Below are positions 3,352 to 38,747 of a stretch of 64,000 nucleotides of DNA, piece by piece. The notes beneath the pieces are model-generated. The model saw only the letters and a list, made by a program, of their open reading frames with translations. It searched no databases and was not told the DNA's origin. Source of the stretch: Escherichia phage A4; the sequence record ON286972. One strand, 5' to 3'. The first letter of the stretch is position 1, and each line of letters begins with the position of its first letter. Made by a program: the position numbers and the translations under genes.

Positions 3352-3352
3352 T

Positions 3353-23267: not shown

Positions 23268-23343
23268 AAGTTTTATTTCAGTACTATTGACATAGCTTGA
23301 TAGTACTGATGTAATAACTTTACTAACTACAAGGGGAAACATA

Positions 23344-23986: not shown

Positions 23987-24137
23987 CAAAATATATAGTT
24001 AATAACGGTGAGTAACTATCTGCTGGTGGGGTGAAAACTATTAATAAAAAAAGTATTGACAAAGTATATCAGTACTGCAATAATGTATCTCGTAGGGCGG
24101 CAATGGTGCGACGGCCCACAAAGTTAGGAGATTCAAA

Positions 24138-24470
24138 ATGACTACTTCAATCGCTATCGTTAAAGCTTTCATCCGTACTAATGTTTCCTCTGTATTCATC
24201 GACGGCCTCGACCGTAACGTAGAATACTCAATCATTATCGCACAAACGGCAAACGGTTCTCGGTACATCCTGAATGATAGTGAAGCAAATCACTACTACT
24301 TCACTAAAGCCACTGGCTTTAAACGCATCGATGCTGATGTAGTATACGCTAAGATGAATAAGCTGGTAGATAAGATTAACGCTAAAGGTACTATAGATTT
24401 ACAGTACTGGACCGAAACCGATCCAGAATATGGATCTCACCGCTACCTGAATCCAGGTGTTAAAATGTAA
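24138..24470 (+). CDS. hypothetical protein
   Basis: 110-aa ORF; SD TAGGAGA. Confidence 0.7.
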   Translation: MTTSIAIVKAFIRTNVSSVFIDGLDRNVEYSIIIAQTANGSRYILNDSEANHYYFTKATGFKRIDADVVYAKMNKLVDKINAKGTIDLQYWTETDPEYGSHRYLNPGVKM

Positions 24471-24559
24471 AAAGTACTTGCATAGTACTTAGATTCAAGT
24501 ATAATGTTTTTCATAGAGAGGGGGAAATGGTTCTCCCTCCTAAATTAAGGAGTTTTATC

Positions 24560-24961
24560 ATGACCTTCTCAATCACTTCCTTCGCTGACGTTTTAGTACT
24601 GGCTCGGACTTTTGGTAAAGATGCACTGGAGTACGCTGTAAGTAATGGCACTATCCAACCGGAACAGTGCCGCATCATTGGAAACTGCAAACGTTGGGCG
24701 GTATCCAATACTATTGCACTGGAAAACTTCAACGATGGTAACAATGAGTATTCAGTTGATGCAGTATTCGAAGCCGTTGATCTTGGCGGTATCTATAACA
24801 CTAACCTAAATGATGTGCGTATCGTTCGCACGGGGTTCGGTGCTTATGATGTATCTATCCGTGAAGCTATGAACACCGGATACATTAGTAAGGACTTACT
24901 TGCTCACATCATGCAGCTATGGACGGAACGTAACGAAGCACGCACTATCTTAGGGCTGTAA
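24560..24961 (+). CDS. hypothetical protein
   Basis: ATG 24560 after TAAGGAG. Confidence 0.65.
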   Translation: MTFSITSFADVLVLARTFGKDALEYAVSNGTIQPEQCRIIGNCKRWAVSNTIALENFNDGNNEYSVDAVFEAVDLGGIYNTNLNDVRIVRTGFGAYDVSIREAMNTGYISKDLLAHIMQLWTERNEARTILGL

Positions 24962-25029
24962 GCAATACACATCACCAAACATCATAGGCCGCTCTCTAGC
25001 GGCCTTAACTATATCAGGAGTACACACAC

Positions 25030-25239
25030 ATGATCTATACAGTATACAGCGTTCTAGGTACTATTGCAGGCGTACACGATAACGTCGATGATGCTATGCG
25101 TACAGTACTGCAACAGGTTCCACTAAAGCCTAAGACTATTAAGCAGATGACAGCACGACTAACCAGGGCAAAGGCTGGCGGTGAAGTCTGGCAGGACTAC
25201 GCGGATACGCAGATTATCATTGCAGTAAGTAATGATTAA
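25030..25239 (+). CDS. hypothetical protein
   Basis: 69-aa ORF; SD CAGGAG. Confidence 0.65.
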   Translation: MIYTVYSVLGTIAGVHDNVDDAMRTVLQQVPLKPKTIKQMTARLTRAKAGGEVWQDYADTQIIIAVSND

Positions 25240-25278
25240 TGAATTAAATGATTCAGTACTAAAACTATTAGTCAGAAA

Positions 25279-25309
25279 ATAATTGAGTCAAAAAATAATT
25301 GACTCAATT
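25279..25309. promoter_or_regulatory. 11-bp perfect inverted repeat, operator-like
   Basis: TAATTGAGTCA-9 nt-TGACTCAATTA, about 130 bp upstream of a TATAAT at 25444-25449. Confidence 0.45.
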
Positions 25310-25479
25310 AAAAAATGAACCAATACCTTATAACCCCAGTGATAATAACGACCTGTTATTATAACTTAGGGCAACTAGGGGCGGGTAATTGCTTAGCTCG
25401 TGTGAAGGGGTTCGTGGGTGGGACAAAAATGTTTCGTATGCTATAATCATATCGAATATGAACATAGCTAGGAGACACT

Positions 25480-26298
25480 ATGCAGATTACCCGTTGTGGA
25501 AGAACCTTCCACTACATGGAGCCTAAAGATGTACAGATGATATACACTGTTCATAATAAGAAAACTCCAAACTTTTATATAAATGAAATTAAGAATAAAC
25601 ATAAAGATTTAAAAATATACGGTTATAACATAACATCATCTAATGAGTTCAACGGTAACAAAACACTTGTTCTTTATGAATTAAAAGGTGTATTACTTAC
25701 AGCTTCAGCAAATCAATTGATGAAGTCAAAGGATATATCAAGAATTCGTTACCGAGATGATGATATCGTTTACGTCACTAATTGTATATTGTTAAACGAA
25801 GGAAAAAATATTAGGTGTACTGGTTTTACACCAGGAAAACAAACTAAAAATACAACATATGGAAATCATGAATGTCATTTGGTGTGTGATGATTGTAATA
25901 GGGAATGGTCAAAACTTATTACAAATATTGTATCAGATGACAGAGAAACCTTTTGTTATTGTGCACAAAGAATATCTTTTAAGGGTAAATGTGCAGCTTA
26001 CTTTTATGTTAATAAATTCACTTATAATGGTGAAACTGTTTACAAATATGGAATAGCTCACAACACAATCAAAAGACGCACACTGTTCAAAAACAATAAT
26101 GGATTAGACTCTGAAGAAATCATAGCTGTACTGTTTGAAAACTCATTGGAAGCTGCTGATCTTGAAGACATGTTGAAGTATACTAATTTAATTAATCATA
26201 TGCGTCATGTTAAAATAAAAGATGGCTGTACTGAACTCACCGATGAAGCTGGACTAAAATTTATTATGGAAGAACTTACTTACATGGGTAAGCTTTAA
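25480..26298 (+). CDS. hypothetical protein with Cys/His cluster and possible GIY-YIG-like segment
   Basis: 272 aa; HECHLVCDDC...FCYC cluster; FYVNK...YKYGIAHNTIKRR loosely resembles GIY-(10-11)-YIG...R. Confidence 0.6.
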   Translation: MQITRCGRTFHYMEPKDVQMIYTVHNKKTPNFYINEIKNKHKDLKIYGYNITSSNEFNGNKTLVLYELKGVLLTASANQLMKSKDISRIRYRDDDIVYVTNCILLNEGKNIRCTGFTPGKQTKNTTYGNHECHLVCDDCNREWSKLITNIVSDDRETFCYCAQRISFKGKCAAYFYVNKFTYNGETVYKYGIAHNTIKRRTLFKNNNGLDSEEIIAVLFENSLEAADLEDMLKYTNLINHMRHVKIKDGCTELTDEAGLKFIMEELTYMGKL

Positions 26299-26301
26299 CA
26301 C

Positions 26302-26330
26302 TTGACATCATGCCTCGTATGGGGTATGAT
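26302..26330 (+). promoter_or_regulatory. sigma70-like promoter at head of family B array
   Basis: TTGACA 26302-26307, 17 bp, TATGAT 26325-26330. Confidence 0.6.
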
Positions 26331-26364
26331 GTTTTTTCATATATGAACCTATGGAATTTGCCCT

Positions 26365-26562
26365 ATGCGTATTTTAACACAAGAAGAGCATCACGAAAGA
26401 CTTATCAATAACATGGCTATGATAATGTATAAGTCTCATAAACGTGGTAATGCCTATAAACGTGAATTAGTTATGGAACTATTCTTAGGAACTAACTTAC
26501 AAAATGAATATGTTAAACTATATGTAAAAGAGTTATGTTTAGAGATAAATGGTAAACTATGA
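26365..26562 (+). CDS. hypothetical small protein, paralog family B
   Basis: motif FLGTNLQNEY. Confidence 0.65.
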   Translation: MRILTQEEHHERLINNMAMIMYKSHKRGNAYKRELVMELFLGTNLQNEYVKLYVKELCLEINGKL

Positions 26563-26759
26563 AAATGCGTACATTAACCCAAGATGAATATCATCATATA
26601 CTACGTAAAAACACGGCAAGGATTTACCAAAGCAATGTGCATTTAGAAAGAGTTGAGTTGTACCTGTTGATTACGATGGGAACCAACTATCAGGAAGTGT
26701 GGGTAACTCACTATTTGGAATCTTTGAAAGCTGACATACGAGCGAGGTGCAAACATTGA
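26559..26759 (+). CDS. hypothetical small protein, family B
   Basis: ATGA overlap; motif TMGTNYQEVW. Confidence 0.65.
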   Translation: MKMRTLTQDEYHHILRKNTARIYQSNVHLERVELYLLITMGTNYQEVWVTHYLESLKADIRARCKH

Positions 26760-26965
26760 AAATCATAACACAGACACAAGCATTTGGTCGTATATTGAAA
26801 TACCTTGATGACATGATAGATATACATAGTGACCTCCCTAAAACTGTAATCTACGCCAAAAGAGCAGAATATCGCATGATGGCTGTACTGAACACAAACT
26901 TTCAGGAAGAGTATGTAAATGATTGGATTGGATTTTTAATTGAAGATATAAAGAGTAAACTATGA
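26756..26965 (+). CDS. hypothetical small protein, family B
   Basis: Probable TTG start (GTG at 26747 possible); motif VLNTNFQEEY. Confidence 0.5.
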   Translation: MKIITQTQAFGRILKYLDDMIDIHSDLPKTVIYAKRAEYRMMAVLNTNFQEEYVNDWIGFLIEDIKSKL

Positions 26966-27174
26966 TTATATTAACACCAGAGCAATATAGGAAACGTTAC
27001 AATTCTAAGCAGATTGAAATCTTGCTGATATATGCAGACAGGGATGATGTATACTTATCAAAAGTTATGGAAAAAGAATTACTTATGGGTGTCTTCTTAG
27101 GAACTGACCACCAGAAATCTTATGTCCAAGAGTATCTAATAGCTCTTGAGAAATACATCAGGAGTAAACTATGA
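26962..27174 (+). CDS. hypothetical small protein, family B
   Basis: ATGA overlap; motif FLGTDHQKSY. Confidence 0.65.
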   Translation: MIILTPEQYRKRYNSKQIEILLIYADRDDVYLSKVMEKELLMGVFLGTDHQKSYVQEYLIALEKYIRSKL

Positions 27175-27395
27175 ACTGCATTAATAACTTTGAATACGAG
27201 GCTCGCTCAAGGTGTGCATCTCAAAAAGAGAACCACATTTACTTCACTATGATGTACTTATCTTGGAATGAAATTGAAGAAATGGTTGCTGAAGTATGGC
27301 TGTTTGAATTCATGGGGACGCAGTATCAGAATAGGTTTGTGGGTGAGTATCTTAATGTTCTTATGAAACATATAGAAAGAAAGGGAATGAACTAA
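27171..27395 (+). CDS. hypothetical small protein, family B
   Basis: ATGA overlap; motif FMGTQYQNRF. Confidence 0.65.
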   Translation: MNCINNFEYEARSRCASQKENHIYFTMMYLSWNEIEEMVAEVWLFEFMGTQYQNRFVGEYLNVLMKHIERKGMN

Positions 27396-27646
27396 TGAAA
27401 GTATTATCAAGCACTGAGTATCAATCTGCCCTATTCTCTTTACTAAACACCCTTCGCAAGAACAATGAACTTTATCCTTCCCCTGAGAATGATGTAGTTA
27501 ATGGTGACGTGTTTCTTCTTAAATTCATTGGAACTAATAAACAAGATACCTTTACTGATCGTTATATCAATGCACTAAGAAACCTTGTAGCGTATAAAAC
27601 CCGCCAGGCCAAAAGAGAATGGAAGAGACAATGCGATCCAGAATAA
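27395..27646 (+). CDS. hypothetical small protein, family B
   Basis: motif FIGTNKQDTF. Confidence 0.65.
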   Translation: MKVLSSTEYQSALFSLLNTLRKNNELYPSPENDVVNGDVFLLKFIGTNKQDTFTDRYINALRNLVAYKTRQAKREWKRQCDPE

Positions 27647-27879
27647 ATCACATTATGTACGTTAAACTATTTCAGAAACTAATCCACAAACACTATGATA
27701 CAGTATCTGATAAACTCACTAATGATATCAGCAGACTTATACACTGTGAAGCAGAGATGCTTGTACTGATGACGGGAGACGATACACAAACAATCTCTAA
27801 GGCAATAGAGAACTATCTGGAAGCATATCAACAACATATAAGAACGGAAGTCTGGAGACGAGAGAATGAAAATCCTTAG
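27631..27879 (+). CDS. hypothetical small protein, divergent family B member
   Basis: ATG 27631 after GGAAGAG; motif degraded to LMTGDDTQ. Confidence 0.5.
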   Translation: MRSRINHIMYVKLFQKLIHKHYDTVSDKLTNDISRLIHCEAEMLVLMTGDDTQTISKAIENYLEAYQQHIRTEVWRRENENP

Positions 27880-28081
27880 TGGGTATGAATATTACAGTCT
27901 GTTGCGAACTATACAAGCAAAAGTTTCTAGTATTTCTTTAGACAAATCTATTGCACAAGTGGACAAATGTGTTATAATAACTGAAATGAAGCTATCTATC
28001 TTCATTGGGACAAACTATCAAAGCATCTACACTGACGCATGGTTAGCAAGTCTACGTAACAAGGTGATATCCAGAGAATGA
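27866..28081 (+). CDS. hypothetical small protein, family B
   Basis: motif FIGTNYQSIY. Confidence 0.65.
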   Translation: MKILSGYEYYSLLRTIQAKVSSISLDKSIAQVDKCVIITEMKLSIFIGTNYQSIYTDAWLASLRNKVISRE

Positions 28082-28296
28082 AAAAATTACAAGGTTTTGA
28101 ATATATTAAGCTTCTTCAAACCTGTGAAATCCAAAGAAGAAAGATTCAAAAGGCTAAAAGAATTACCGCAGAACGAAAGTTTACACTGATAACTGAAGTC
28201 TATGTATTAAAACTCTTAGGCACAAACCATCAACACAAGTATGTAGACCTATGGATTGATGCACTCCAGAAAGAGGTTAAAAGTAAATGCAAATGA
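28078..28296 (+). CDS. hypothetical small protein, family B
   Basis: ATGA overlap; motif LLGTNHQHKY. Confidence 0.65.
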   Translation: MKKLQGFEYIKLLQTCEIQRRKIQKAKRITAERKFTLITEVYVLKLLGTNHQHKYVDLWIDALQKEVKSKCK

Positions 28297-28511
28297 TTAA
28301 TTTAAGTAAAGATGAATATTATGTACGTCTTGCAAAAACTTATTCATTACGCAAGGCCATTTATGAAAGTCACATTATTGAACAATCAAATAAGTGGATT
28401 GTAGTAAATGAGATCAAGATGCTTTCAGTCTTAGGAACAAACTATCAAGCGAGTGCTGTACTGAAGGTCATTAATGCACTTCAAAATGAGGTCCAAAGTA
28501 AATGCAAATGA
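28293..28511 (+). CDS. hypothetical small protein, family B
   Basis: ATGA overlap (alternative ATG 28287); motif VLGTNYQASA. Confidence 0.6.
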   Translation: MINLSKDEYYVRLAKTYSLRKAIYESHIIEQSNKWIVVNEIKMLSVLGTNYQASAVLKVINALQNEVQSKCK

Positions 28512-28765
28512 TTAATTTAAGTAAAGATGAATATAACGAGCGACTAGCAAAAATCTCACCTAAACGTAATGCAATCTATCACAGCCAAGAAATTCAACAC
28601 AGTAAGAAGATGATTATGTTTCGTGAGTTAAAGATGGGTGTCTTCTTAGGAACAAACTATCAAGAGACAGAAGTAAATCGCGTCATAACCGAGTTACTCA
28701 TGGAAATCAGAGGTAAGCTGTACTTTCATCAAATGACCCAACCACTGAGGTGTAATGAGAAATGA
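28508..28765 (+). CDS. hypothetical small protein, family B
   Basis: Start junction identical to that of gene 28293 (recent duplication); motif FLGTNYQETE. Confidence 0.6.
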   Translation: MINLSKDEYNERLAKISPKRNAIYHSQEIQHSKKMIMFRELKMGVFLGTNYQETEVNRVITELLMEIRGKLYFHQMTQPLRCNEK

Positions 28766-28998
28766 ATAAAATTAATAACATCAACTTAGCAGAAAGATTT
28801 GATAGAATTGGGGAAGCTCTGAGAAGATACGATAAAGCATATGGTCATTTAAGCTTTACCATAGAAACGAGATATGCCCTTGAAGAAGAGTTTAAAATGC
28901 ATAGTCTCTTAGGCACACAGTATCAAAAACAATATGTTCAAAAATGGATTGAATGTTTAATCCAAACAATTCATGTGAGGAACATAAAATGCAAATGA
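28762..28998 (+). CDS. hypothetical small protein, family B
   Basis: ATGA overlap; motif LLGTQYQKQY. Confidence 0.65.
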   Translation: MNKINNINLAERFDRIGEALRRYDKAYGHLSFTIETRYALEEEFKMHSLLGTQYQKQYVQKWIECLIQTIHVRNIKCK

Positions 28999-29243
28999 TA
29001 TACTTAACAGACGATGAAATAAAAGAAAGAATAATTAAATCCAGAAAACATACAAATCAACTTCCAAAAGACCCAAACCAAACCCCTGCTGCAAGGAGTG
29101 CAGAAGTATTATATCAACAACTCCTGTACTTTCTTGGAACTGATAGACAGGATTATTATGTTCGATCGATTCTTAGATATCTTAAAATGACTATTCAGGA
29201 AAAGATACATGACCAAATATATAAAAATCTTAACAGTCAATGA
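28995..29243 (+). CDS. hypothetical small protein, family B
   Basis: ATGA overlap (alternative ATG 28989); motif FLGTDRQDYY. Confidence 0.6.
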   Translation: MIYLTDDEIKERIIKSRKHTNQLPKDPNQTPAARSAEVLYQQLLYFLGTDRQDYYVRSILRYLKMTIQEKIHDQIYKNLNSQ

Positions 29244-29460
29244 ATATCATAAGATTATCATGAAGACTAATAGTGCAATTTCTAAAAAATCAAACCCCAA
29301 GTACATTCTGGAACACACATTTGAAGAACGACAATTAGCTTTAGTTGAAGCAAAACTTCTTGCACTATTAGGGACTAACTATCAAGACGAGTACGTAAGA
29401 AAACTAATATACCTTTTAACTAAACACATCAGGAAAAGAAATGCTGCACTTGACAAATGA
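29209..29460 (+). CDS. hypothetical small protein, family B
   Basis: motif LLGTNYQDEY. Confidence 0.6.
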   Translation: MTKYIKILTVNEYHKIIMKTNSAISKKSNPKYILEHTFEERQLALVEAKLLALLGTNYQDEYVRKLIYLLTKHIRKRNAALDK

Positions 29461-29671
29461 CGAATACGGTGTTATCATCCTTGATGTTATCAATAAAGAA
29501 TACCATAGGAAACAACGATACGCTTGTTATGAAGATAAACAGCTTTCTATAGCTGAACAACAATTAGTTCATTTATTAGGAACAAACTATCAAGAACAAT
29601 GCACTGAACGTTACCTGTACCTACTGTCGAGGAAAGCAAAAAGAGATTATGAAAATTTTAAACGAAGGTGA
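29441..29671 (+). CDS. hypothetical small protein, family B
   Basis: motif LLGTNYQEQC. Confidence 0.6.
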   Translation: MLHLTNDEYGVIILDVINKEYHRKQRYACYEDKQLSIAEQQLVHLLGTNYQEQCTERYLYLLSRKAKRDYENFKRR

Positions 29672-29864
29672 TGAAGTAATATTACTTATAGAGAATTCAA
29701 GTAAATTCTTAAACATATCACTGTCTGATATAGATGAAGATGACAAAGAAGTACTGAGAGCAGATTTAAGAGTACTGTTACATCTCGGAACAAACCTACA
29801 AGAACAATTTGTTGAGGACTACATCGATGAACTTAAAGAATCAGTACTGAGAAGATGTAAATGA
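29649..29864 (+). CDS. hypothetical small protein, family B
   Basis: motif HLGTNLQEQF. Confidence 0.6.
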   Translation: MKILNEGDEVILLIENSSKFLNISLSDIDEDDKEVLRADLRVLLHLGTNLQEQFVEDYIDELKESVLRRCK

Positions 29865-30103
29865 AAATGAAAATCCTTTCAAGCACAGAATACAACCAAC
29901 TATTAAGTAGTTTAATTCCAAAGTTGCATCGTAGCTGGTCAGCAGAATTATCACAGGATGAAAAAAATATTCTAATAAGTGAAATCTATGTTCTAGCTAC
30001 TATAGGAACTAACTATCAAGAACACATCATAGTGGATTATATTAATACACTCAAAAGGGTAATACAATTAAAATGCACAGACAGCACATACACAAACCCC
30101 TAG
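29861..30103 (+). CDS. hypothetical small protein, family B
   Basis: ATGA overlap; motif TIGTNYQEHI. Confidence 0.65.
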   Translation: MKMKILSSTEYNQLLSSLIPKLHRSWSAELSQDEKNILISEIYVLATIGTNYQEHIIVDYINTLKRVIQLKCTDSTYTNP

Positions 30104-31359: not shown

Positions 31360-31605
31360 ATGTTAAAATTTTTAAATTTCCTTATCGTCTTGTGTATTGT
31401 TCTTGGGATTGCACCGTTTGTATTAGCGTATCTGGATTCAGATGAAATGCACAAGATGAATTGCACAAAGACAGGACAGAGTAGAAAAGAGACGGTTATG
31501 ATGCCCGTAACGGTTATTGTGAATAATATGCCGATTACGAACATGATTCCTACCCTAACGACAACGTATCAGTACTCTTGCGATGACGGAGAGAGGTGGA
31601 GATGA
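31360..31605 (+). CDS. small predicted membrane protein
   Basis: N-term LKFLNFLIVLCIVLGIAPFVLAYL hydrophobic helix; 81 aa. Confidence 0.55.
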   Translation: MLKFLNFLIVLCIVLGIAPFVLAYLDSDEMHKMNCTKTGQSRKETVMMPVTVIVNNMPITNMIPTLTTTYQYSCDDGERWR

Positions 31606-31931
31606 CACGTAAATTCAATTGTATTGTCAGAGATAAAATCTGTTTCATTGCGTTGTCCAATTTCCAGAGCAATTCTGGGGTTAAGGTATTTGAGTACAAT
31701 AAAGTTGATAATTGTTTCTATTGGGTAGACGGTGTAAAATCCACAGGAAACAAGATTGCAGTACCGAATCTAGTTGATATCTCTGAAGAAGAAGAGTTTC
31801 AGTACAGTTTAGTACATGATGATTCTTTTGGATTTACGTTCAATGAAATGAAGGAAGTACAAAGGCAGATGATATCGTATAGTAATCTTCCAAAGCATTT
31901 CATACAAGATGTGCATAGAATTGTAATATAG
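31596..31931 (+). CDS. hypothetical acidic protein, family C
   Basis: motif EEEEFQYSLVHD. Confidence 0.65.
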   Translation: MEMTRKFNCIVRDKICFIALSNFQSNSGVKVFEYNKVDNCFYWVDGVKSTGNKIAVPNLVDISEEEEFQYSLVHDDSFGFTFNEMKEVQRQMISYSNLPKHFIQDVHRIVI

Positions 31932-31938
31932 GGGATAT

Positions 31939-32274
31939 ATGAAATTCAACATTCACCGAATTAATTCCGGTTGTATATTTGCTTATACGCATGAGAATTA
32001 CAAGAAGTACATGAATCATGAAGTACATTATGTTTTCGAGGACGGTAAAGAATATTTTGCTTATTTGAGTCCCAGGAGTTTAGGTAAGTACGAGTTGCTT
32101 CAGGATCTTTCTCTTATGCAGGAAGATGAATTATTTCAGTACAGTCTAATTCATGACCCTTATATGTTTGATATAGATATTATGTGCAGTTTACAGAAGA
32201 GGATGAAAGAAGTTTGGGATTCGATTAAAAGAGGTGATTGTATAGAATATGATAGTATACAAGAAGATGCCTAA
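31939..32274 (+). CDS. hypothetical acidic protein, family C
   Basis: motif EDELFQYSLIHD. Confidence 0.65.
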   Translation: MKFNIHRINSGCIFAYTHENYKKYMNHEVHYVFEDGKEYFAYLSPRSLGKYELLQDLSLMQEDELFQYSLIHDPYMFDIDIMCSLQKRMKEVWDSIKRGDCIEYDSIQEDA

Positions 32275-32467
32275 CGGATATGAATTGAAGTACAGACATT
32301 TTATTCGAAATGTAGAATCAGATCCTTTTAATGTTAAAATGGCAGAGTTCGATTTATTATTTTATCTAGGAACGAGAGCACAGCCACAATTCGTTGATGC
32401 ATACATAAGGGCTTTACGAACAGAGATAGTATGCACACCAAAGGAGTCTAAATGTACAAAAATGTAA
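32249..32467 (+). CDS. hypothetical small protein, family B
   Basis: motif YLGTRAQPQF. Confidence 0.6.
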   Translation: MIVYKKMPNGYELKYRHFIRNVESDPFNVKMAEFDLLFYLGTRAQPQFVDAYIRALRTEIVCTPKESKCTKM

Positions 32468-32709
32468 ACCATCATTTGTACGCATCAAAGTACAGGGATT
32501 TTTGTTTACAAGGGGGCGATGAAGATTTTGCTTTGCGATTATCGGAATTTAATATGTTATTTTATCTTGGTACATCAGTACAAGAAGAAATGGTACAGAA
32601 ATTTATCAAGCACCTTGAACGAAAAATTCATACGCAAATTTTGGTTGTTAAGTTACAGAATGAGATAAATGAATACAATGCAGAATCTAACAGTAGTACA
32701 GGATCTTAG
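32452..32709 (+). CDS. hypothetical small protein, family B
   Basis: motif YLGTSVQEEM. Confidence 0.6.
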   Translation: MYKNVNHHLYASKYRDFCLQGGDEDFALRLSEFNMLFYLGTSVQEEMVQKFIKHLERKIHTQILVVKLQNEINEYNAESNSSTGS

Positions 32710-33070
32710 ACCAGTAATAATGATGTTAAATGCAAGACGAGATTTATGGCACGAAATGCATAACAACAAGGATTCATTTGCACAAATCAATTTAGTCTTT
32801 CAGGAGTTAATCCAGAGTGCATTGGATGTTATAGTACCAAAATACAAAGATGGTATATTCTGTGTAAAGAATGCAGTTCGTCCTCATGCAATTCCAAGGA
32901 AAATTAAGTTAGCCAGATTAACATTTGACGAGAGGGATTTCTTCAGTTATAATCCCAGTACAGCTTTATATTTTATTCCTGATTCAGACAAATATCATCC
33001 TATCCATTACGGATGGATTATGTCGTATGTAGTGAATGAAACGGAATACCCTATTAAATGGGAAAGATGA
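32669..33070 (+). CDS. hypothetical protein
   Basis: 133-aa ORF; only weak LVFQELIQS resemblance to family C. Confidence 0.5.
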   Translation: MNTMQNLTVVQDLRPVIMMLNARRDLWHEMHNNKDSFAQINLVFQELIQSALDVIVPKYKDGIFCVKNAVRPHAIPRKIKLARLTFDERDFFSYNPSTALYFIPDSDKYHPIHYGWIMSYVVNETEYPIKWER

Positions 33071-33255
33071 TGATAGATGCAAAGACATTAAATGCATTAA
33101 ATGCATTACAGGATTCATTATTAGATAGTATTAAGCTGTATTACAATATGCATTTGAGGGGTGGTATCAATGATTACAATTATTATTTGAGTGTAATTAT
33201 ATTTGAGCATCTTTCAGTACAGGATAGAATTTTACACAAGTACAAACATTATTGA
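33067..33255 (+). CDS. hypothetical small protein
   Basis: ATGA overlap; 62 aa. Confidence 0.5.
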   Translation: MMIDAKTLNALNALQDSLLDSIKLYYNMHLRGGINDYNYYLSVIIFEHLSVQDRILHKYKHY

Positions 33256-33266
33256 GGAAACAAAAT

Positions 33267-33617
33267 ATGTTCAATAAAATCATGTTCATTTTAACATTTG
33301 TGTTTTTATCATTTATAAACACCGCACATACAGCACAGGCATCATCGGATGTACCGTTATATGAAACATACAAATTTGATTGCAGATTACAGAATAATGA
33401 AATAATCAATATCTTTTTACACAATACAGAAGTACCTTATTTGCAGATTGAAGCAACGAAGTACATGTATTATGGTACGAATTCAGTACAGGAATTTTTA
33501 TTCAAACACACCAATCAGGATGTAATTATATCATTGCAGTACGTTGATAGTTCATTGTCTTTAATGCATTTCAAGAATGCAGAGGGATTAGTTACAGTGC
33601 TCAAATGCTATAGGTAA
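33267..33617 (+). CDS. predicted secreted protein (signal peptide) with family B-like GTNxxQ segment
   Basis: MFNKIMFILTFVFLSFINTAHTAQA signal-like N-term; YYGTNSVQEF echoes family B motif. Confidence 0.6.
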   Translation: MFNKIMFILTFVFLSFINTAHTAQASSDVPLYETYKFDCRLQNNEIINIFLHNTEVPYLQIEATKYMYYGTNSVQEFLFKHTNQDVIISLQYVDSSLSLMHFKNAEGLVTVLKCYR

Positions 33618-33623
33618 TAATAT

Positions 33624-34139
33624 ATGAATGAAATTGAATTATTAACGCACAAGATTAGTACAATAATGCTTATGCTCAAAAATAATCATCCTATACATAA
33701 GTACATTGATATAGATGAATTACGCATAGAAGATAGGCATGGTAAATTATCGTTTATGTTTCACAATGCAAATAATGCAGGGAATGTTAACGTTTGTATT
33801 GCAGCATTTACCCAAGCCAATCCAGTACAAACATCTCCTGTTGTATACGAAAATAAAGAAGGGTATTTGTGGGTAAACACAAACGATTATTTCTTTTATG
33901 ATTTGAAACAAGATGATGAAGTAGAAGAACGAATTGATTTAATTGATATTAGTACAGATTGTAGTGCTGAATTATTTCAGAAATCGTTATTATATAGTCC
34001 TCGTCAAATGCATTATCTAAAGTTATTCAGTTCATTGTACGCGAATCCTTTAATTAAGGGTTTTAAATTTTATATAAAAGTTCCTGACATTCAAGCAGTT
34101 TATGATATTTTGATGCAAGGATATAGTTATGAAGTATAA
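33624..34139 (+). CDS. hypothetical acidic protein, family C
   Basis: motif AELFQKSLLY. Confidence 0.65.
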   Translation: MNEIELLTHKISTIMLMLKNNHPIHKYIDIDELRIEDRHGKLSFMFHNANNAGNVNVCIAAFTQANPVQTSPVVYENKEGYLWVNTNDYFFYDLKQDDEVEERIDLIDISTDCSAELFQKSLLYSPRQMHYLKLFSSLYANPLIKGFKFYIKVPDIQAVYDILMQGYSYEV

Positions 34140-34437
34140 AATGCTTTATACAAAAGATATGATTTATGTTGAATTAGAAGGCGATGAAGACGGTTGGAAT
34201 TTGATTTATTCAAGTAGTTCAGGTTGGTACATGGCACATTTAAATGATAACGAAGTTACAGATTATTTTGTAGATTTCAATACATTATCAGACGAAGAAT
34301 TGTTTCAACAGCAATTAGTGATTGACACGGGTGGTTATGATGTGTTATTATTAAAAAAGATACAGAAAGCTGTTATGAATTTTAATGCCCAAGTATCCGA
34401 ATGGGAAAGGAAATATTATGACCTCGAAGTACAATAA
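34129..34437 (+). CDS. hypothetical acidic protein, family C
   Basis: motif DEELFQQQLVID. Confidence 0.6.
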   Translation: MKYKMLYTKDMIYVELEGDEDGWNLIYSSSSGWYMAHLNDNEVTDYFVDFNTLSDEELFQQQLVIDTGGYDVLLLKKIQKAVMNFNAQVSEWERKYYDLEVQ

Positions 34438-34786
34438 TACATTTGATATTAATAAGTTAACAGAATGGTTTTATAATATTGAAATTGAAGCTATTCCGTA
34501 TCACAAGTACGAACAACGTGATTTGCGTAGTATAGATATTCGTGAGTTGTACGAGTATTATCAGAGTGCATTAGAGATGCATAAGATATTTTTGAGTACA
34601 GAATACATGACACGTTGTAATGATGCGTTTGATGAATTCAAGAAGAATGATAATTTAGTACAGAAATATGTAATAGCAAAGTACATGTACCTTCAGGGAA
34701 TTACAAGTATAGTGGAATTCAATACAGTTCTTGCTTTAGTTGAGATTATTTTATTATGCAAAAATGTAAAGTGGAATTTAGTTTAG
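34418..34786 (+). CDS. hypothetical protein
   Basis: ATG 34418 after AAAGGAAA SD; no family motif. Confidence 0.55.
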   Translation: MTSKYNNTFDINKLTEWFYNIEIEAIPYHKYEQRDLRSIDIRELYEYYQSALEMHKIFLSTEYMTRCNDAFDEFKKNDNLVQKYVIAKYMYLQGITSIVEFNTVLALVEIILLCKNVKWNLV

Positions 34787-35253
34787 AGAGTGCTGTACAG
34801 TACGTTAAGTACATTGAAGGTGTATACAATATAATGAAAGCATATGAAGGAAAAGGATATGCTTCAATAAATCACAAATATGATTACATCAACAATCAGT
34901 TAGAAGAATCAAATTCAGGTAAAGTGCTTTTTAGTTTTTTATATTTTGCTCCTGACAATGTATATCCTGATGAAGATGATCTTCGTCTGGATAGAGATGA
35001 CCTGTGGTATATGTATCCAGGACGTGATAAGCCAATGGATGATGCTTTGTTGGAAATCAAATACAGTACAGAACCATTGACACCGGAGTTGTGGTTCCAG
35101 TACAGTACAATACATGAAGAAATTGATATCTTTTTCTACGCAATATACAAGATGCTTTATGAGAATGGTGTGCTTAAGAATCATGTATATTTTTATTTCC
35201 AGCAAATGAAAAATGTATATGAGTCCTTTTACCCAACCGAGCCTGTATCGTAA
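34756..35253 (+). CDS. hypothetical acidic protein, family C
   Basis: motif PELWFQYSTIHEE. Confidence 0.6.
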   Translation: MQKCKVEFSLESAVQYVKYIEGVYNIMKAYEGKGYASINHKYDYINNQLEESNSGKVLFSFLYFAPDNVYPDEDDLRLDRDDLWYMYPGRDKPMDDALLEIKYSTEPLTPELWFQYSTIHEEIDIFFYAIYKMLYENGVLKNHVYFYFQQMKNVYESFYPTEPVS

Positions 35254-35278
35254 GATATGGGCTTTTTTCGTTTTGGTA

Positions 35279-35307
35279 TTGACATAGAAGACCAAAGCTG
35301 TTATCAT
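35279..35307 (+). promoter_or_regulatory. sigma70-like internal promoter in family C array
   Basis: TTGACA 35279-35284, 17 bp, TATCAT 35302-35307; AAAGGAGA SD then ATG 35334. Confidence 0.55.
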
Positions 35308-35333
35308 GTGTATTCATTTTAAAGGAGACATTT

Positions 35334-35858
35334 ATGGCGAGTTTCATGATCCCAAGTACATACGAAGATGCATCAAGTGCAGTGTATAAGGTTCATTATA
35401 TTTTTAATTTAATTATTAGTGCATCAAAAAATAAAATGTATGCACCTCTTGTGAAATATGATAAAAATGAGGAAATTTTTGTTAGCACAGAACAAACGAT
35501 TTTTCCATATTTCAAAGAAGATAGATTGTGGTTCATGCATTCAGTCGTATTACAAAGATATAATATAACAAGGTCCAATGAGCATGATTATTTGGATATA
35601 CAATTAGATCAACCCGATATTGGAGAGGATGAATATTTTCAGTACAGCACAGTACACCACCATGAAGATATCTTTGCTGCTATGCTTATTGCTAAATTGA
35701 ACACCGTTGATTTGGAGCAGCACAAATACAATAATAAATCATGTAAGATCATAATCCCTGCATTCATTGCTCTTTATGATTACATTGTGCATAACAAAAA
35801 AGATGATACCTATGCTTTCAATGAAGAGTATTTGGATTTTTTTAAGGAGAACATATGA
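35334..35858 (+). CDS. hypothetical acidic protein, family C
   Basis: motif EDEYFQYSTVHHHED. Confidence 0.7.
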   Translation: MASFMIPSTYEDASSAVYKVHYIFNLIISASKNKMYAPLVKYDKNEEIFVSTEQTIFPYFKEDRLWFMHSVVLQRYNITRSNEHDYLDIQLDQPDIGEDEYFQYSTVHHHEDIFAAMLIAKLNTVDLEQHKYNNKSCKIIIPAFIALYDYIVHNKKDDTYAFNEEYLDFFKENI

Positions 35859-36379
35859 GCAGTTCAACAATACAGAAAGCAATGACATTCAATGAAATTG
35901 GTGCATTTAAAGATAAGATTATTGATTGTATTGAATACGCGATTTGTAGTAATATCAAAAGTATAGAGGTATTTAACAAGTCAAATCGCTCTTACCATAT
36001 GATGTACATTGCAAACAATAATGGTATCATTCCATTTGTTTCGGATAGTACAATATGGTTCGCTTGCGATGTGAAAAAATACACAATAGGTTCATATGTC
36101 TTCGGTAAACATGGTGATCTAATTATTCCTGAGCATTGTATGCAAGAAGAAGAATATTTTCAAAAGCAATGTGTACATGAACCATTAGAGATGGTTGCTT
36201 TATATATGATACCTTATATCTCTAAATGTGTTCATGAGAATAAAGCTCCGTGGAATCATGAATTTGTATCGTTGAAGTTATTGTATAATGTTTTAGTACA
36301 ATATTATGATTACAGGCACAATGGTACAATCAGTGATGTATGGGATTTCGAAAATTTAAGGGTAAGTACATATGCATAA
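35855..36379 (+). CDS. hypothetical acidic protein, family C
   Basis: ATGA overlap; motif EEEYFQKQCVHE. Confidence 0.65.
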   Translation: MSSSTIQKAMTFNEIGAFKDKIIDCIEYAICSNIKSIEVFNKSNRSYHMMYIANNNGIIPFVSDSTIWFACDVKKYTIGSYVFGKHGDLIIPEHCMQEEEYFQKQCVHEPLEMVALYMIPYISKCVHENKAPWNHEFVSLKLLYNVLVQYYDYRHNGTISDVWDFENLRVSTYA

Positions 36380-37010
36380 TTTTCCCAGAAATGCTTCACC
36401 GTATGAGGTGATGAAGTTCATGGAGCCTCATGTTCCTTATATGTTTGAAATGCTAAAGAAGTTCAATGCTATTTTCCCTGAGAATTCAAAATTGGAGATT
36501 CCATTTGATTCCGCATCCAGATACAGTGCATCCTGTGGTAAATTAGTTTTAGTTATCGGTAGTGACAGAATTGGTTTCAGGGAAGTATTTGACACGTCAT
36601 TAGCATTTGGTATATTCGATAACAACAATAACATCACATACATTGACAAGTACATTTGCGACATAGCAGGTTCCTCTAAGCCTGATTCCTTTGTGGATTC
36701 AGTTGCAGATTATGGTGTTTCAAAAGATGGTAATGTAATAAGTACAAAGACGTTCATATCATTATCGTTAGAAGATGACATATGTTACATTGCAGGTCAA
36801 GAGTACGAGGGTGTAGAGGAAGTGCTTTTTCAAATGTCCTTAGTACAGAAGGATATGGTGGACCCTACCGAAATCCTGAAGTTGTGCAAATATGCGAATG
36901 AGTACAAGAAATTGATTGAACCTGGGTTTAGTTTCAGTGCACAGAGTCCACATTTTCAGATAAAAGTATATGAAGATTTCATTTTGAAGTTAAAAGAGAT
37001 TGTGTTATAA
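36372..37010 (+). CDS. hypothetical acidic protein, family C
   Basis: motif EEVLFQMSLVQKD. Confidence 0.65.
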   Translation: MHNFPRNASPYEVMKFMEPHVPYMFEMLKKFNAIFPENSKLEIPFDSASRYSASCGKLVLVIGSDRIGFREVFDTSLAFGIFDNNNNITYIDKYICDIAGSSKPDSFVDSVADYGVSKDGNVISTKTFISLSLEDDICYIAGQEYEGVEEVLFQMSLVQKDMVDPTEILKLCKYANEYKKLIEPGFSFSAQSPHFQIKVYEDFILKLKEIVL

Positions 37011-37062
37011 TACGCTATAACATGCAATAACACACAATACAACAAAGACGGGAGTGATTGAT

Positions 37063-37599
37063 ATGATCCAGCACAAACATTTTGAGTACGAGTTCGCTGA
37101 CAATTTAGTAAAAATCGTACAGGCGTTTGAGGCTGGGGATTTTGACCACATCTATCCTAAGCACAAGGAAGGATGGCTTGAGCCTAAGAGCGATATTGAA
37201 CAGTATCCCTCTATTGTGTATTACAGGAGAGATACGGTAATGCACGCTGTAGGTGAGAAGATGCAGTTAGAGTATTGTCTTTTGTTCAATGCTATTACAT
37301 CGGCTACATCAGCATCTGAAGAGTTCGCTCCAGTGAATTGGATTCGTTATTTGGATATGAGCAAGAGAGAGGAAGAAACCTTTTTTGGTTTAACAAAGCA
37401 CGTTGATATTGCAACCTTAAATCCTAACATCCTGAGTCCTGAAGAATATTTTCAGGAGTCCTTAGTACAAGATCCTTATGTTTTACAGGTGCAGCAAGTA
37501 TATAATGTATTACGTGCTAATGTGAAAACGAATTTCTTTTTAGCTTTAACGTGGTACGATAGGTTAGTAAAAGATCTCAAAGAGATTAAGGGGGAGTAA
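37063..37599 (+). CDS. hypothetical acidic protein, family C
   Basis: ATG 37063 after GGGAG SD (GTG 37054 alternative); motif PEEYFQESLVQD. Confidence 0.6.
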   Translation: MIQHKHFEYEFADNLVKIVQAFEAGDFDHIYPKHKEGWLEPKSDIEQYPSIVYYRRDTVMHAVGEKMQLEYCLLFNAITSATSASEEFAPVNWIRYLDMSKREEETFFGLTKHVDIATLNPNILSPEEYFQESLVQDPYVLQVQQVYNVLRANVKTNFFLALTWYDRLVKDLKEIKGE

Positions 37600-38165
37600 T
37601 GCTGGACCTTCAGGACATAGAAAGTACATGCAAAGTGATAGAAGATGATTTAGAATACATCAAGGGGTTGTATTTAATTGTAGATAGGATTTACAAAAAT
37701 CCGAATGCGTTTCAGGAAACGTACCAGCATGATAAATTTCGTCACGATGCAATCATTACGCTTATGTCGGATTTATCGATTTACGAAAGAAAATCCAACA
37801 AATCACATAGTGTATTATTTGTGAGTACAGATAGATTTTACAGTACAACATCAATTTGTTCAGATGTATCATGTGCATGGTTCAGTTCAAATGAATATAT
37901 AACAGTTAAAAATAATGGCGAAAATGAGAAATTAAAAGTAAGTGAGCTTATTGATTTGATGCCATATAGTCCTGATGTAGTGTTTCAGTACAGTACATTG
38001 CACGATTATAATTCAATACGATATCGTTATTTTGTTAAGCATTATTATGATACCTTCGGGGAGTTAACGGAGAAGTTAACGTTGAGATTTGACAGAGATA
38101 TCGATCTCGTTGCATTGAATCAGTACCTTCAGGAAGTGTTTGATATAAACGCGGAAAAGGGGTAA
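37599..38165 (+). CDS. hypothetical acidic protein, family C
   Basis: motif PDVVFQYSTLHD. Confidence 0.65.
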   Translation: MLDLQDIESTCKVIEDDLEYIKGLYLIVDRIYKNPNAFQETYQHDKFRHDAIITLMSDLSIYERKSNKSHSVLFVSTDRFYSTTSICSDVSCAWFSSNEYITVKNNGENEKLKVSELIDLMPYSPDVVFQYSTLHDYNSIRYRYFVKHYYDTFGELTEKLTLRFDRDIDLVALNQYLQEVFDINAEKG

Positions 38166-38379
38166 TTTTAAAATGATAAATATAGGCTTGTTTTTGGGGG
38201 CGTTTTGGGGGGTCAAAAAAATTTTCGCTGAAAAACATGTTAAGGTATATGTTTAATATAAAATTTTATATTGTGTTTTTCAGAGTACAGTTCATGTTTC
38301 CTTAAACAAAAAATACCCCCCGCCGCCGAACGTGCTCCTTATATTGGAGTTTACCTTATTAATTATAGTAGAGGTTATT

Positions 38380-38736
38380 ATGAGCAATGATTTTGCTATT
38401 CACAGTTTTTTCTACAAAAAGGTTGAGTTCTATTGTAATCTCGTTAAGGGTGATACCAATCATTCGTTGGACCAATATATTAAGTACACCTCAAATGGAT
38501 TTTCTTTTGTTGATTACGGTCGAGTTGGTGGTGGTGTTAATGAACCTATGCTGGACTATACAGAAATGGATGAGGCTACTCTATTTCAGGAATCATTAGT
38601 GTTCGATAAGAAATATATTTGTACACTAGATGAAGTTATTGGTATTCAGAATATCATGAAAGAATACTCTGCGAAGTGCATGATGGAATTAACTCAAGAT
38701 AAGCACAAGACTGTTCAGTGCTATTTCAATCTTTAG
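38380..38736 (+). CDS. hypothetical acidic protein, family C
   Basis: ATG 38380 after AGAGG; motif EATLFQESLVFD. Confidence 0.6.
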   Translation: MSNDFAIHSFFYKKVEFYCNLVKGDTNHSLDQYIKYTSNGFSFVDYGRVGGGVNEPMLDYTEMDEATLFQESLVFDKKYICTLDEVIGIQNIMKEYSAKCMMELTQDKHKTVQCYFNL

Positions 38737-38747
38737 GGGTCTTAACT

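Follow-up and report, generated by a model that had tools for sequence, protein, structure and literature searches.

A gene of Escherichia phage A4, a 121Q/PBECO4-like jumbo phage of the genus Asteriusvirus, lies just past the predicted inner end of a direct terminal repeat of ~21 kb and raises two questions: what its product does, and whether a striking palindrome upstream belongs to it. The gene, A4_316 (272 aa, positions 25480-26298, + strand), carries only the annotation 'hypothetical protein' in the 64,000-nt stretch of A4 DNA analysed here, which we call the window. A preliminary description had placed it at the boundary between an early block and an array of small paralogues. This is correct and can be sharpened to the inner terminal-repeat end, the 'early block' being predicted, from homology to related genomes, to be the repeat itself. 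We found no paralogue of A4_316 elsewhere in the window, and neither Rfam nor tRNA scans, run on 24900-26500 and 24000-27000, returned a match. The spacer ahead of the gene carries GATTCAGTACT, kept in all aligned loci across Asteriusvirus and Alcyoneusvirus; within it lies one copy (25253-25260, unstranded) of the TCAGTACT motif, of which the window has 117 copies where 2.5 would be expected.

The A4_316 protein can be divided into three parts. The GIY-YIG-like motif seen earlier is present and conserved, with FYV (175-177), YKYG (188-191) and R199 falling in a C-terminal nuclease domain of T5orf172 type (aa 166-272; 25975-26295, + strand) that is marked by Y176, Y188-K189-x-G191, R199, E229 and G249-x-T-E252. 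Y176, Y188-K189-Y190-G191, R199 and E229 are invariant in the immediate family and conserved at 90% or more in 102 relatives, among which C136, C159, Y176, K189, G191, R199, E229, G249 and E252 are all nearly invariant. In an AF2 model (pLDDT 74.8) this domain has the beta-beta-alpha-beta-alpha order of the GIY-YIG core fold. Ahead of it, module 2 (aa 96-165; 25765-25974, + strand) contains the zinc module C136-x2-C139...C159-x-C161 and varies more than any other part of A4_316, with a mean pairwise identity of 32%. The cluster had been described as one of cysteines and histidines; the cysteines (C132, C136, C139, C159 and C161, with C136, C139 and C159 family-invariant) hold up, while H130 and H133 are not conserved in the family, which leaves a Cys4 site. 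Its form, C136-DD-C139...C159-Y-C161 with modelled flanking strands at 131-136 and 142-146, is that of the CxxC...CxC signature of CapR, for which a spacing of 24-26 residues has been reported (PMC8096241); the spacing in A4_316 is 19 residues. The cluster is a treble-clef/zinc-ribbon module of CapR/DUF4379 type, predicted to bind zinc and DNA. Module 1 (~aa 28-95; 25561-25764, + strand) is a cysteine-free repeat of CapR/DUF723-like character with a presumed role in DNA contact; it is modelled at pLDDT 73-85, and in a homologue, P0007, the corresponding region (38-85) matches Pfam CapR weakly.

A direct check of the protein against Pfam GIY-YIG and zinc-finger models, as the preliminary description had suggested, was negative, so that the assignment had to draw on a family profile, a modelled structure and transitive evidence. 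Searches of Pfam (E up to 10), NCBIfam and PADLOC gave no useful match: PF10544, PF13455 and PF01541 did not reach their gathering thresholds and did not match even at E 10, PF21817, PF14311 and PF05265 also stayed below threshold, and the sole direct Pfam match of the zinc region was to the PhnA Zn-ribbon (E 0.094). On the other hand, phrog_681, labelled 'endonuclease', matched aa 6-267 with an E of 3e-10, and a family profile run against 1.8 billion proteins yielded 103 matches. In 102 scanned relatives we detected DUF4379 (60/102), CapR (51/102), MUG113 (22/102), T5orf172 (17/102) and GIY-YIG (1/102). The closest outgroups, P0007 and P0015, have MUG113, T5orf172 or CapR above the Pfam threshold at matching positions: P0007, which matches the family profile with an E of 1e-17, reaches 29.5 bits for MUG113 and 21.7 bits for T5orf172, both above cut-off, and P0015 has CapR at 105-160, which corresponds to query residues of about 108-163. 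A profile of A4_316 with 101 distant relatives found UPF0213 GIY-YIG proteins (E 0.002) and DUF4379 proteins (E 6e-7) in the PDB, and the best Foldseek matches in BFVD were full-length phage proteins labelled 'CapR homology domain' and 'T5 Orf172', with E from 1e-12 to 1e-8. Moreover, the broad 102-sequence profile aligned by hhalign to the ICP1 nuclease Odn with 91.7% probability (E 7.7e-7), pairing Y176 with Y127, K189-x-G191 with K138-x-G140, R199 with R148 and E229 with E180; a narrow six-sequence family profile gave an insignificant 3% in the same comparison. The last of these pairs is of interest in that the E180A change abolishes cleavage by Odn (PMC8263062). CapR/DUF723/DUF4379 modules joined to T5orf172 are the described architecture of T5orf172 homing endonucleases (PMC10448857), and A4_316 is probably a divergent member of this known class, that is, a candidate free-standing T5orf172 homing endonuclease with CapR/DUF4379-type modules. 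In the interpretation first offered for this locus, the GIY-YIG superfamily domain (T5orf172/MUG113 branch) at the C-terminus and the zinc module stand in substance; the operator, discussed below, is not supported. The family relationship and the conserved catalytic residues are shown here, and nuclease activity, DNA binding and homing are what we infer.

The closest described counterparts are the T5orf172 homing endonucleases of Vibrio phage ICP1 and other phages (Gp53, Gp121, Gp130, Gp165, Gp174; Barth et al. 2023, PMC10448857). Like A4_316, they string N-terminal zinc-finger DNA-binding modules of CapR, DUF723 or DUF4379 type as 'beads on a string' before a C-terminal T5orf172 domain, are free-standing, are variably present in close isolates, lie at boundaries of genetic exchange and have a shuffled or highly divergent DNA-binding part. 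A4_316 differs from them in being too divergent for direct Pfam matches to CapR, DUF4379 and T5orf172, in its first module without cysteines and shorter CxxC-to-CxC distance (19 rather than 24-26 residues), and in its setting, beside the boundary of the terminal repeat and ahead of an array of tiny paralogues instead of next to an essential gene for structure or replication. The origin-directed T5orf172 nuclease of ICP1, Odn (Gp88; PMC8263062), shares with A4_316 the Y, K-x-G, R and catalytic E, and a first helix without His or Tyr, but it binds DNA through a RepA_N domain and serves as an anti-satellite weapon, whereas A4_316 has CapR-type modules and no satellite link was seen. The capsid-operon repressor CapR of PLE (PMC8096241) has a CxxC...CxC zinc module of the same family as that of A4_316, but it is a repressor without a functional nuclease domain, while A4_316 keeps the full set of nuclease motifs. 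In I-TevI and the T4 Seg proteins, which are canonical GIY-YIG homing endonucleases, the nuclease is N-terminal rather than C-terminal; A4_316 also differs from these in belonging to the T5orf172 subfamily rather than PF01541 and in having no intron. Within the same phage genus, the 'endonuclease' gp604 of 121Q, encoded beside the major capsid gene, has a homologous C-terminal domain (hhalign 96.5%) and the same DUF4379/DUF723 plus T5orf172 architecture, but it is longer (365 aa), has more zinc modules, sits at another locus and is just ~30% identical in the nuclease domain.

The position of the gene can be fixed through the genome ends of its relatives. The terminal repeat of fEgEco12 was determined by PhageTerm as 20,993 bp and confirmed with restriction digests (PMC13070987); it ends in ...GGGCGGGTAACCT|TAGCG; the records of G17, E9.1 and WPEC3 have the same end base, and the PhageTerm repeat end of Muenster reads ...TTAGGCT|TAGCAC. 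In A4 the corresponding motif is GGGGCGGGTAATTGCT|TAGC (25378-25397, + strand), found in 11 of the 11 compared loci and once in the window, and at the left end position 1 of fEgEco12 and E9.1 (AGTAGGCAGAGG...) aligns to window position 4415. This boundary homology predicts an A4 direct terminal repeat of 20,979 bp (4415-25393, + strand) with its right boundary at 25393|25394, the conserved …GCT|TAGC sitting in the GC-rich spacer. We considered the nuclease as the maker of these ends and rejected this, as fEgEco12, G17, E9.1, WPEC3 and Muenster, all without the gene, end at the same motif. A T4 MotA box at TGCTTA (25390-25395) was likewise rejected by eye, TAnnnT being missing at the required distance.

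Inside the repeat, about 83-85 nt from its predicted end, 40 nt past the stop codon of its last gene and 170-200 nt upstream of A4_316, lies the perfect palindrome TAATTGAGTCAA-AAAATAA-TTGACTCAATTA (25280-25310, unstranded). Its arms (25280-25291 and 25299-25310) are 12 nt each and 100% complementary across a 7-nt spacer, so that the 11-bp repeat with a 9-nt spacer described before is real but a subset of a fuller one. The GC-richer spacer in which it had been placed exists as a patch of 59% GC at 25370-25425, ~60 nt downstream; the palindrome itself, with 19% GC, is AT-rich and adjoins the patch rather than lying in it. It is the sole perfect inverted repeat in the window with arms of at least 12 nt and a spacer of 3-20 nt, where first-order Markov simulations give 0.12 per 64-kb window, so that its occurrence is unusual, though not overwhelmingly, and the window holds no second copy of its arm. 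A second, imperfect inverted repeat, AGTGATAATAAC / GTTATTATAACT (25338-25366, unstranded; 11/12 matches), folds at -11.7 kcal/mol (z -3.5).

The full palindrome is unique to A4, and an exact search for its 25-nt centre in IMG/VR and JGI metagenome contigs gave no match. Its core, AGTCAAAAAATAATTGACT, is common to KP13-7, RaK2 and Muenster, and AGTCAA-N7-TTGACT is conserved between two phage genera; these 19 nt are identical in both genera within a stretch of 75-90 nt otherwise about 80% identical. A search for the 19-nt core in IMG/VR returned 10 contigs, of which the one from RaK2 was examined and is homologous; the other nine are assumed to be chance AT-rich matches. The three Asteriusvirus loci with an orthologous gene (L007, L009 and L011) have other sequence in place of the palindrome. 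In L009, a sister allele, another hairpin, its 7-nt AT spacer similar to that in A4, occupies the identical position, and there it is a canonical terminator (a 10-bp stem, then U6AU4); no comparable hairpin was found at this position in L007, KP13-7 or 121Q, nor any hairpin in L011. Sequence divergence starts at or beside the palindrome in both genera. The palindrome is most likely a quasi-palindrome perfected in one lineage, in a spacer prone to recombination, and at most a weak RNA or DNA hairpin. It is probably without function, although its rarity, the cross-genus core, the start of divergence and the L009 hairpin leave room for some function it may have.

One such function would be at the RNA level, with the hairpin acting as a terminator or a stabilising structure at the 3' ends of early transcripts from the terminal repeat. 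The predicted fold (-14.6 kcal/mol, z -7.3), the distance of 40 nt from the repeat's last stop codon and the canonical terminator at the identical position in L009 are consistent with this. At the same time, the stem has just 3 G-C pairs among its 12 and is followed on the + strand by AAAAAA and not by a U-tract, the terminator scan calls it on the minus strand only, where there are no genes, and L007, KP13-7 and 121Q do without a comparable hairpin, so that we regard this role as unlikely. Perfection of a quasi-palindrome in the A4 lineage remains our preferred account of the repeat.

The gene itself has the marks of a mobile cassette. The preliminary description had noticed a TATAAT, and it is indeed there (25442-25447), preceded by TG and with GGGACA at 16-nt spacing, which makes up a predicted sigma-70-type promoter, GGGACA-16-TGcTATAAT (25420-25447, + strand; 10/12 matches, extended -10), for the nuclease gene; TGnTATAAT is kept in L007 and L009, and in 121Q, a phage without A4_316, the homologous position holds the promoter of the first array gene. 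The RBS, AGGAG (25470-25474, + strand), read from the sequence, is 5 nt before the ATG. Downstream, an overlapping intrinsic terminator and promoter (26302-26339, + strand; -18.6 kcal/mol, z -4.7) would restart transcription into the array: the terminator has a 13-bp stem (26304-26333) followed by TTTTTT, as intrinsic terminators do, and the promoter TTGACA-17-TATGAT has 11/12 matches. In PBECO4 the same module follows an unrelated 121-aa ORF; 121Q and EC.P1 do not have the module. Alignment with genomes lacking the gene delimits an 885-bp insert between direct repeats C(A/C)CTATGC, namely CACTATGC at 25476-25483 and CCCTATGC at 26361-26368 (+ strand); homology with 121Q resumes at 26361, and the first array gene has its ATG at 26365. 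The gene thus sits in a self-contained intergenic cassette with its own promoter, RBS and terminator/promoter module.

Its presence is sporadic. The gene is missing at this locus from each of the 41 Asteriusvirus-type records that were matched in the phage collection, and the spacer was read directly in 121Q, PBECO4 and EC.P1 and in the separately obtained fEgEco12; in PBECO4 the slot is filled by the 121-aa ORF, which has no recognisable domain. A few other contigs have the gene (L007/L008, L009/L010 and L011), alleles 55-65% identical to A4_316 occupying the same slot in L007, L009/L010 and L011; Klebsiella phage KP13-7 has a 45% homologue, and RaK2 and Muenster have no gene, so that close relatives are polymorphic for its presence at one locus. 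Mosaic boundaries are clearest between A4 and its sister locus L010, where the flanks are 98-100% identical (100% until the palindrome) and 25280-26100 is 54-70% identical; this differing, hypervariable block of ~850 bp, opened by the palindrome, takes in the spacer together with the DNA-binding portion of the nuclease. The alleles of the upstream spacer are shuffled independently of the nuclease gene, and for this reason a clean insertion event is not reconstructable.

We propose that the two tandem CapR/DUF4379-like modules would recognise a DNA site, the first having lost its cysteines and the second holding zinc through C136, C139, C159 and C161, and that the C-terminal GIY-YIG-type domain would cut nearby by means of Y176, R199 and E229. 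With A4 and a relative without the gene in one cell, the break would be repaired from the A4 copy, and the gene would spread together with its flanks. A4_316 has probably taken over the promoter, RBS and ATG which, in genomes lacking it, serve the gene at the start of the small-paralogue array, and the terminator-plus-promoter module brought by the cassette would let transcription of the array start again. All known alleles are found at a single locus, with 35-45% divergence, and this could reflect long residence or domestication instead of active homing. A4_316 might not be selfish at all but a domesticated DNA-binding regulator like CapR, or a nuclease against satellites or competitors, like Odn, kept for the benefit of the phage. 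Both fates are documented for its family (PMC8096241, PMC8263062), its alleles are old and confined to one locus, and as the head of the paralogue array it could regulate that array; yet the catalytic Tyr, Arg and Glu are retained in all alleles, which speaks against a pure repressor, the gene is missing from most relatives with no visible replacement, and no satellite-derived domain was detected. We judge this quite improbable and favour a homing endonuclease.

Whether the palindrome belongs to the gene can be asked with both in view. It had been called operator-like, but its centre (25295) lies ~125 nt upstream of the -35 (25420-25425), where an operator would overlap or abut the promoter, and the predicted genome end falls between the two; we found no promoter over the palindrome on the + strand. 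Its TTGACT was tried as a -35 and rejected, since the + strand offers no acceptable -10 at a distance of 16-18 nt and the minus strand just 9/12 matches. Nor is it inherited together with the gene, as would be expected of an operator and its regulator: the gene carriers L007, L009 and L011 lack it, and RaK2 and Muenster have the core without the gene. A role as operator of A4_316 is therefore unlikely, the palindrome being restricted to A4, far from the promoter, replaced in gene carriers and present as a core in Klebsiella phages without the gene. A related idea, very improbable in our view, is that the nuclease itself binds the palindrome, repressing its own gene as I-TevI does, or that the palindrome is an allele-specific recognition or 'immunity' site varying together with the hypervariable zinc module. 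Autorepression by I-TevI is a precedent cited in PMC10448857 and PMC8096241. The palindrome also opens the block that separates A4 from the otherwise 98-100% identical L010, and L009 has its own hairpin there, with a comparable AT spacer of 7 nt. Against this, besides the 125 nt that part the palindrome from the -35 and the core in RaK2 and Muenster, the gene carriers L007 and L011 have no hairpin there. GIY-YIG homing enzymes such as I-TevI act as monomers on asymmetric sites, and a symmetric site is not expected for them. A part for the palindrome in genome-end biology, whether in terminase recognition, in priming the duplication of the repeat by a hairpin as proposed for T7, or in halting injection close to where the repeat ends on its inner side, by analogy with T5, agrees with its place 83 nt inside the predicted boundary and with the AGTCAA-N7-TTGACT core kept in two genera, but is likewise very improbable, as 121Q-type phages with the same mapped end have neither palindrome nor core and the GGGTAA-N-CT|TAGC motif is the only element conserved in all.

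These results do not overturn current understanding. They give A4_316 a predicted function, and the …GGGTAA-N-CT|TAGC motif at the inner repeat end lets the unmapped ends of Asteriusvirus and Alcyoneusvirus genomes, A4 included, be predicted from sequence. As a speculation to which we attach very little probability, the nuclease has colonised the conserved genome-end region and may home on the region of that indispensable cis-site, with the A4 and L009 hairpins as cognate recognition or immunity sites co-evolving with the zinc module; if true, the specificity module and the DNA site of a homing element would be diversifying together beside the packaging end of the phage. A4 and L010, near-identical apart from the ~850-bp block, offer a clean natural case of the pattern of a nuclease at a boundary of genetic exchange. 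The CapR-zinc-finger/T5orf172 class, known mainly from ICP1, T5-like and Vibrio phages, would with this candidate extend to a branch in the jumbo phages of E. coli and Klebsiella, one so divergent that standard domain models miss it.

The ORF at 25480-26298 (+), which has an AGGAG ribosome-binding site, encodes a 272-aa protein with 100% identity to 'hypothetical protein A4_316 [Escherichia phage A4]', and the ORF, its cysteine cluster and its FYV...YKYG...R motif all read as in the preliminary description. The DNA around it shares 86-95% identity with 121Q, PBECO4, EC.P1 and some 40 further jumbo phages of Asteriusvirus. The close family of A4_316 is tiny: it has six clusters, every one of which comes either from Asteriusvirus-like contigs or from a jumbo phage of Klebsiella. 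The suspected GIY-YIG and zinc-finger domains did not emerge directly, as the sole Pfam match of A4_316 was a Zn-ribbon (E 0.094) and NCBIfam and PADLOC gave none, but they were recovered through the family profile, outgroup homologues and structure. Among PHROGs, A4_316 matched phrog_681 'endonuclease' over nearly its full length (E 3e-10). Searching 1.8 billion representatives with the close-family profile yielded 103 proteins; DUF4379 (a treble-clef zinc finger) was found in 60/102 relatives scanned, the CapR homology domain in 51/102, MUG113 in 22/102, T5orf172 in 17/102 and GIY-YIG in 1/102. The nearest outgroup homologues exceeded Pfam thresholds at positions corresponding to A4_316: P0015 for CapR (105-160) and MUG113/T5orf172 (170-232), and P0007 for MUG113/T5orf172 (167-231).

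Across all 102 proteins there is little or no variation at C136, C159, Y176, K189, G191, R199, E229, G249 and E252. The broad profile matched the T5orf172 domain of ICP1 Odn (91.7% probability, E 7.7e-7), aligning Y176, K189, G191, R199 and E229 of A4_316 with Odn Y127, K138, G140, R148 and E180; Odn cleavage is lost in E180A both in vitro and in vivo (PMC8263062). Upstream of these residues, C136-x2-C139...C159-x-C161 corresponds to the CxxC...CxC signature required for DNA binding by CapR (PMC8096241), although the spacing between CxxC and CxC is 19 residues rather than the 24-26 of CapR. The two histidines of the proposed Cys/His cluster lack conservation within the family. A second module of CapR/DUF723 type, now devoid of cysteines, seems to occupy residues ~28-95, since P0007 has a weak CapR match at the matching place; such a two-module layout resembles the 'beads on a string' reported for T5orf172 homing endonucleases (PMC10448857). 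Within A4_316 the zinc module varies most (mean pairwise identity 32%) and the C-terminal half of the nuclease least (74%). The AlphaFold model (pLDDT 74.8) has a beta-beta-alpha-beta-alpha C-terminal domain, a Foldseek search of viral models found full-length similarity to proteins from RaK2, K64-1, UB, AS-szw and others labelled 'CapR homology domain' or 'T5 Orf172', and in the PDB the broad profile matched DUF4379 proteins at E 6e-7 and GIY-YIG proteins of the UPF0213 type at E 0.002; this modelled and profile-based evidence agrees with the family placement from sequence. We conclude that A4_316, a predicted T5orf172/CapR-type endonuclease, adds a divergent new member to a kind already known.

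The gap between the 69-aa gene and the 65-aa gene that opens the paralogue array is ~250 bp in 121Q, EC.P1 and fEgEco12, as against 1126 bp in A4. Relative to these phages A4 has an 885-bp insert bordered by C(A/C)CTATGC at 25476-25483 and 26361-26368, so that the nuclease ORF begins where the array gene has its own ATG in those genomes and is served by the homologous promoter and ribosome-binding site. That promoter, GGGACA-16-TGcTATAAT (+), has a good extended -10, and the TATAAT noted ahead of the gene lies at 25442-25447. A strong terminator (26304-26333; -18.6 kcal/mol, then T6) closes the insert and overlaps a near-consensus promoter, TTGACA-17-TATGAT. In PBECO4 the slot holds an unrelated 121-aa ORF (2524-2889 of its locus) with no recognisable domain, followed by the same terminator/promoter 3' module; this ORF apparently occupies the slot in BF17 too. 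In the KP13-7 locus an extra 62-aa ORF (3975-4163) adjoins the nuclease gene. This slot looks like a hot spot for insertions in general. The array itself (26365-30100 and beyond; 'family B' of the preliminary description) consists of tandem 63-96-aa paralogues with an LGTNYQ-like motif, gained and lost between phages; its identity to relatives is 62-77%, compared with 90-95% for the terminal repeat of the same relatives.

The inverted repeat upstream of the gene is real and slightly larger than first noted, with 12-nt arms (25280-25291 and 25299-25310), 100% complementary, around a 7-nt spacer. It is the window's only perfect repeat with arms of at least 12 nt and a spacer of 3-20 nt (0.12 expected per 64 kb in Markov simulations), its arm sequence has no further copy in the window, and exact searches of IMG/VR and JGI metagenome contigs found no copy of its 25-nt centre. 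The GC-richer spacer said to contain it exists as a patch at 25370-25425 (59% GC), but this lies downstream, and the palindrome is AT-rich (19% GC). Within the phage collection, only Klebsiella Alcyoneusviruses gave similar sequences (78-80% identity over 74-90 nt); these phages share with A4 a 19-nt core, AGTCAAAAAATAATTGACT, within an imperfect palindrome.

A terminator-like hairpin is an unlikely role for this repeat: it folds well as RNA (-14.6 kcal/mol, z -7.3), and L009, an Asteriusvirus contig with the orthologous gene, has in its place another hairpin, which with a U-tract makes a canonical terminator, but the + strand continues with A6 rather than U, the stem has three G-C pairs, and the terminator scan called it on the minus strand only, where there are no genes. 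Two other such contigs have no hairpin there (L007) or are of 121Q type (L011). The proposed operator function is unsupported and very improbable, because the palindrome centre lies 125 nt upstream of the -35; moreover, the arms are unconserved in every Asteriusvirus locus with the nuclease gene in our alignment of upstream regions, and the core occurs in Alcyoneusviruses with the nuclease (KP13-7) or without it (RaK2, Muenster). A small doubt over this dismissal comes from the divergence block between A4 and its sister locus L010, which starts exactly at the palindrome, and from the KP13-7/RaK2 indel, which starts immediately past the quasi-palindrome. About as improbable is a part in end biology. 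The palindrome lies 83 nt inside the predicted terminal repeat. Otherwise, it is probably neutral.

The 8-mer TCAGTACT occurs 117 times in the whole window against 2.5 expected (for example at 4366-4404, 5957-5995, 23278-23309 and 25253-25260), often in the self-complementary form TCAGTACTGA and in pairs 12-19 nt apart, which make up most of the window's surplus of 10-11-nt inverted repeats; there are zero copies within 25261-29749 and 31577-39410. Candidate roles for this 8-mer are a promoter or regulator site particular to the phage, or a motif connected with DNA modification; its massive excess merits separate follow-up.

Several longer records matched the window DNA twice, one match falling under a 'terminal repeat region predicted by PhageTerm'. 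Right ends from five relatives (Muenster, G17, E9.1, WPEC3 and fEgEco12) are concordant. The Muenster repeat (1-20030) ends at ...TTAGGCT|TAGCAC; the G17, E9.1 and WPEC3 records all terminate ...GGGCGGGTAACCT, and the fEgEco12 repeat, 20,993 bp by PhageTerm and confirmed by restriction digests (PMC13070987), stops at the same base (...AACCT|TAGCG). TAA-N(1-4)-CT|TAG(C/T) is present in 11/11 loci compared and is the sole block kept across all spacer alleles; its form GGGTAA-N-CT|TAGC is kept across two genera. The A4 motif, GGGGCGGGTAATTGCT|TAGC, would place the right boundary at 25393|25394. On the left, the end (AGTAGGC...) falls at 4415 by alignment, where A4 reads CCCACTA|AGTAGGC (4414|4415), and the two ends together predict, by homology to the relatives' mapped ends, a direct terminal repeat of 20,979 bp. 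The nuclease gene does sit at the boundary of the 'early block', as the first gene outside the predicted repeat; on these ends the early block would be the terminal repeat and the 'GC-richer spacer' the end site. We rejected the nuclease as maker of the genome ends because phages without it end alike. The boundary motif also merits its own follow-up.

Around this boundary, the spacer (25240-25480) compared with loci L001, L005 (KP13-7), L007, L009, L011 and L019 (RaK2) falls into two allelic types, AACCA(A/G)TAC..TAT and TAGGTA(A/G)TCCC. Both types occur in both genera, with or without the nuclease gene, which indicates that jumbo phages of Escherichia and Klebsiella have recombined repeatedly within this short stretch. 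Just outside the repeat boundary, RaK2 (6630-6730) and Muenster (1665-1765) carry tandem ~38-nt units (…ATCATTCTGTGCACTATTCTGTACTG…), with none in A4 or 121Q. A G+C-rich hairpin (AGGCCGCTCTCTAGCGGCCT, 24986-25005) follows the 144-aa gene and is called as a terminator on the minus strand only; in the Klebsiella phages the equivalent site holds a canonical terminator on the + strand. In 121Q, gp604 (1742-2839 of its locus), a 365-aa paralogous DUF4379/DUF723 and T5orf172 nuclease, directly follows the major capsid gene, with the small GIY-YIG protein gp606 (3253-3561) two genes beyond, a typical homing-endonuclease neighbourhood.

At the A4 nuclease locus, none of the records in the phage collection carries an orthologue; alleles in the same slot (55-65% identity) come from three metagenome- or assembly-derived Asteriusvirus contigs, and a 45% homologue is present in KP13-7 and absent from RaK2 and Muenster. 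Between A4 and L010 the flanks are 98-100% identical, compared with only 54-70% from 25280 to ~26100, and against gene-less relatives identity is ~90-95% left of the gene and only ~73-77% to its right. This behaviour matches the published view of T5orf172 nucleases as variably present, recombining genes at boundaries of genetic exchange (PMC10448857).
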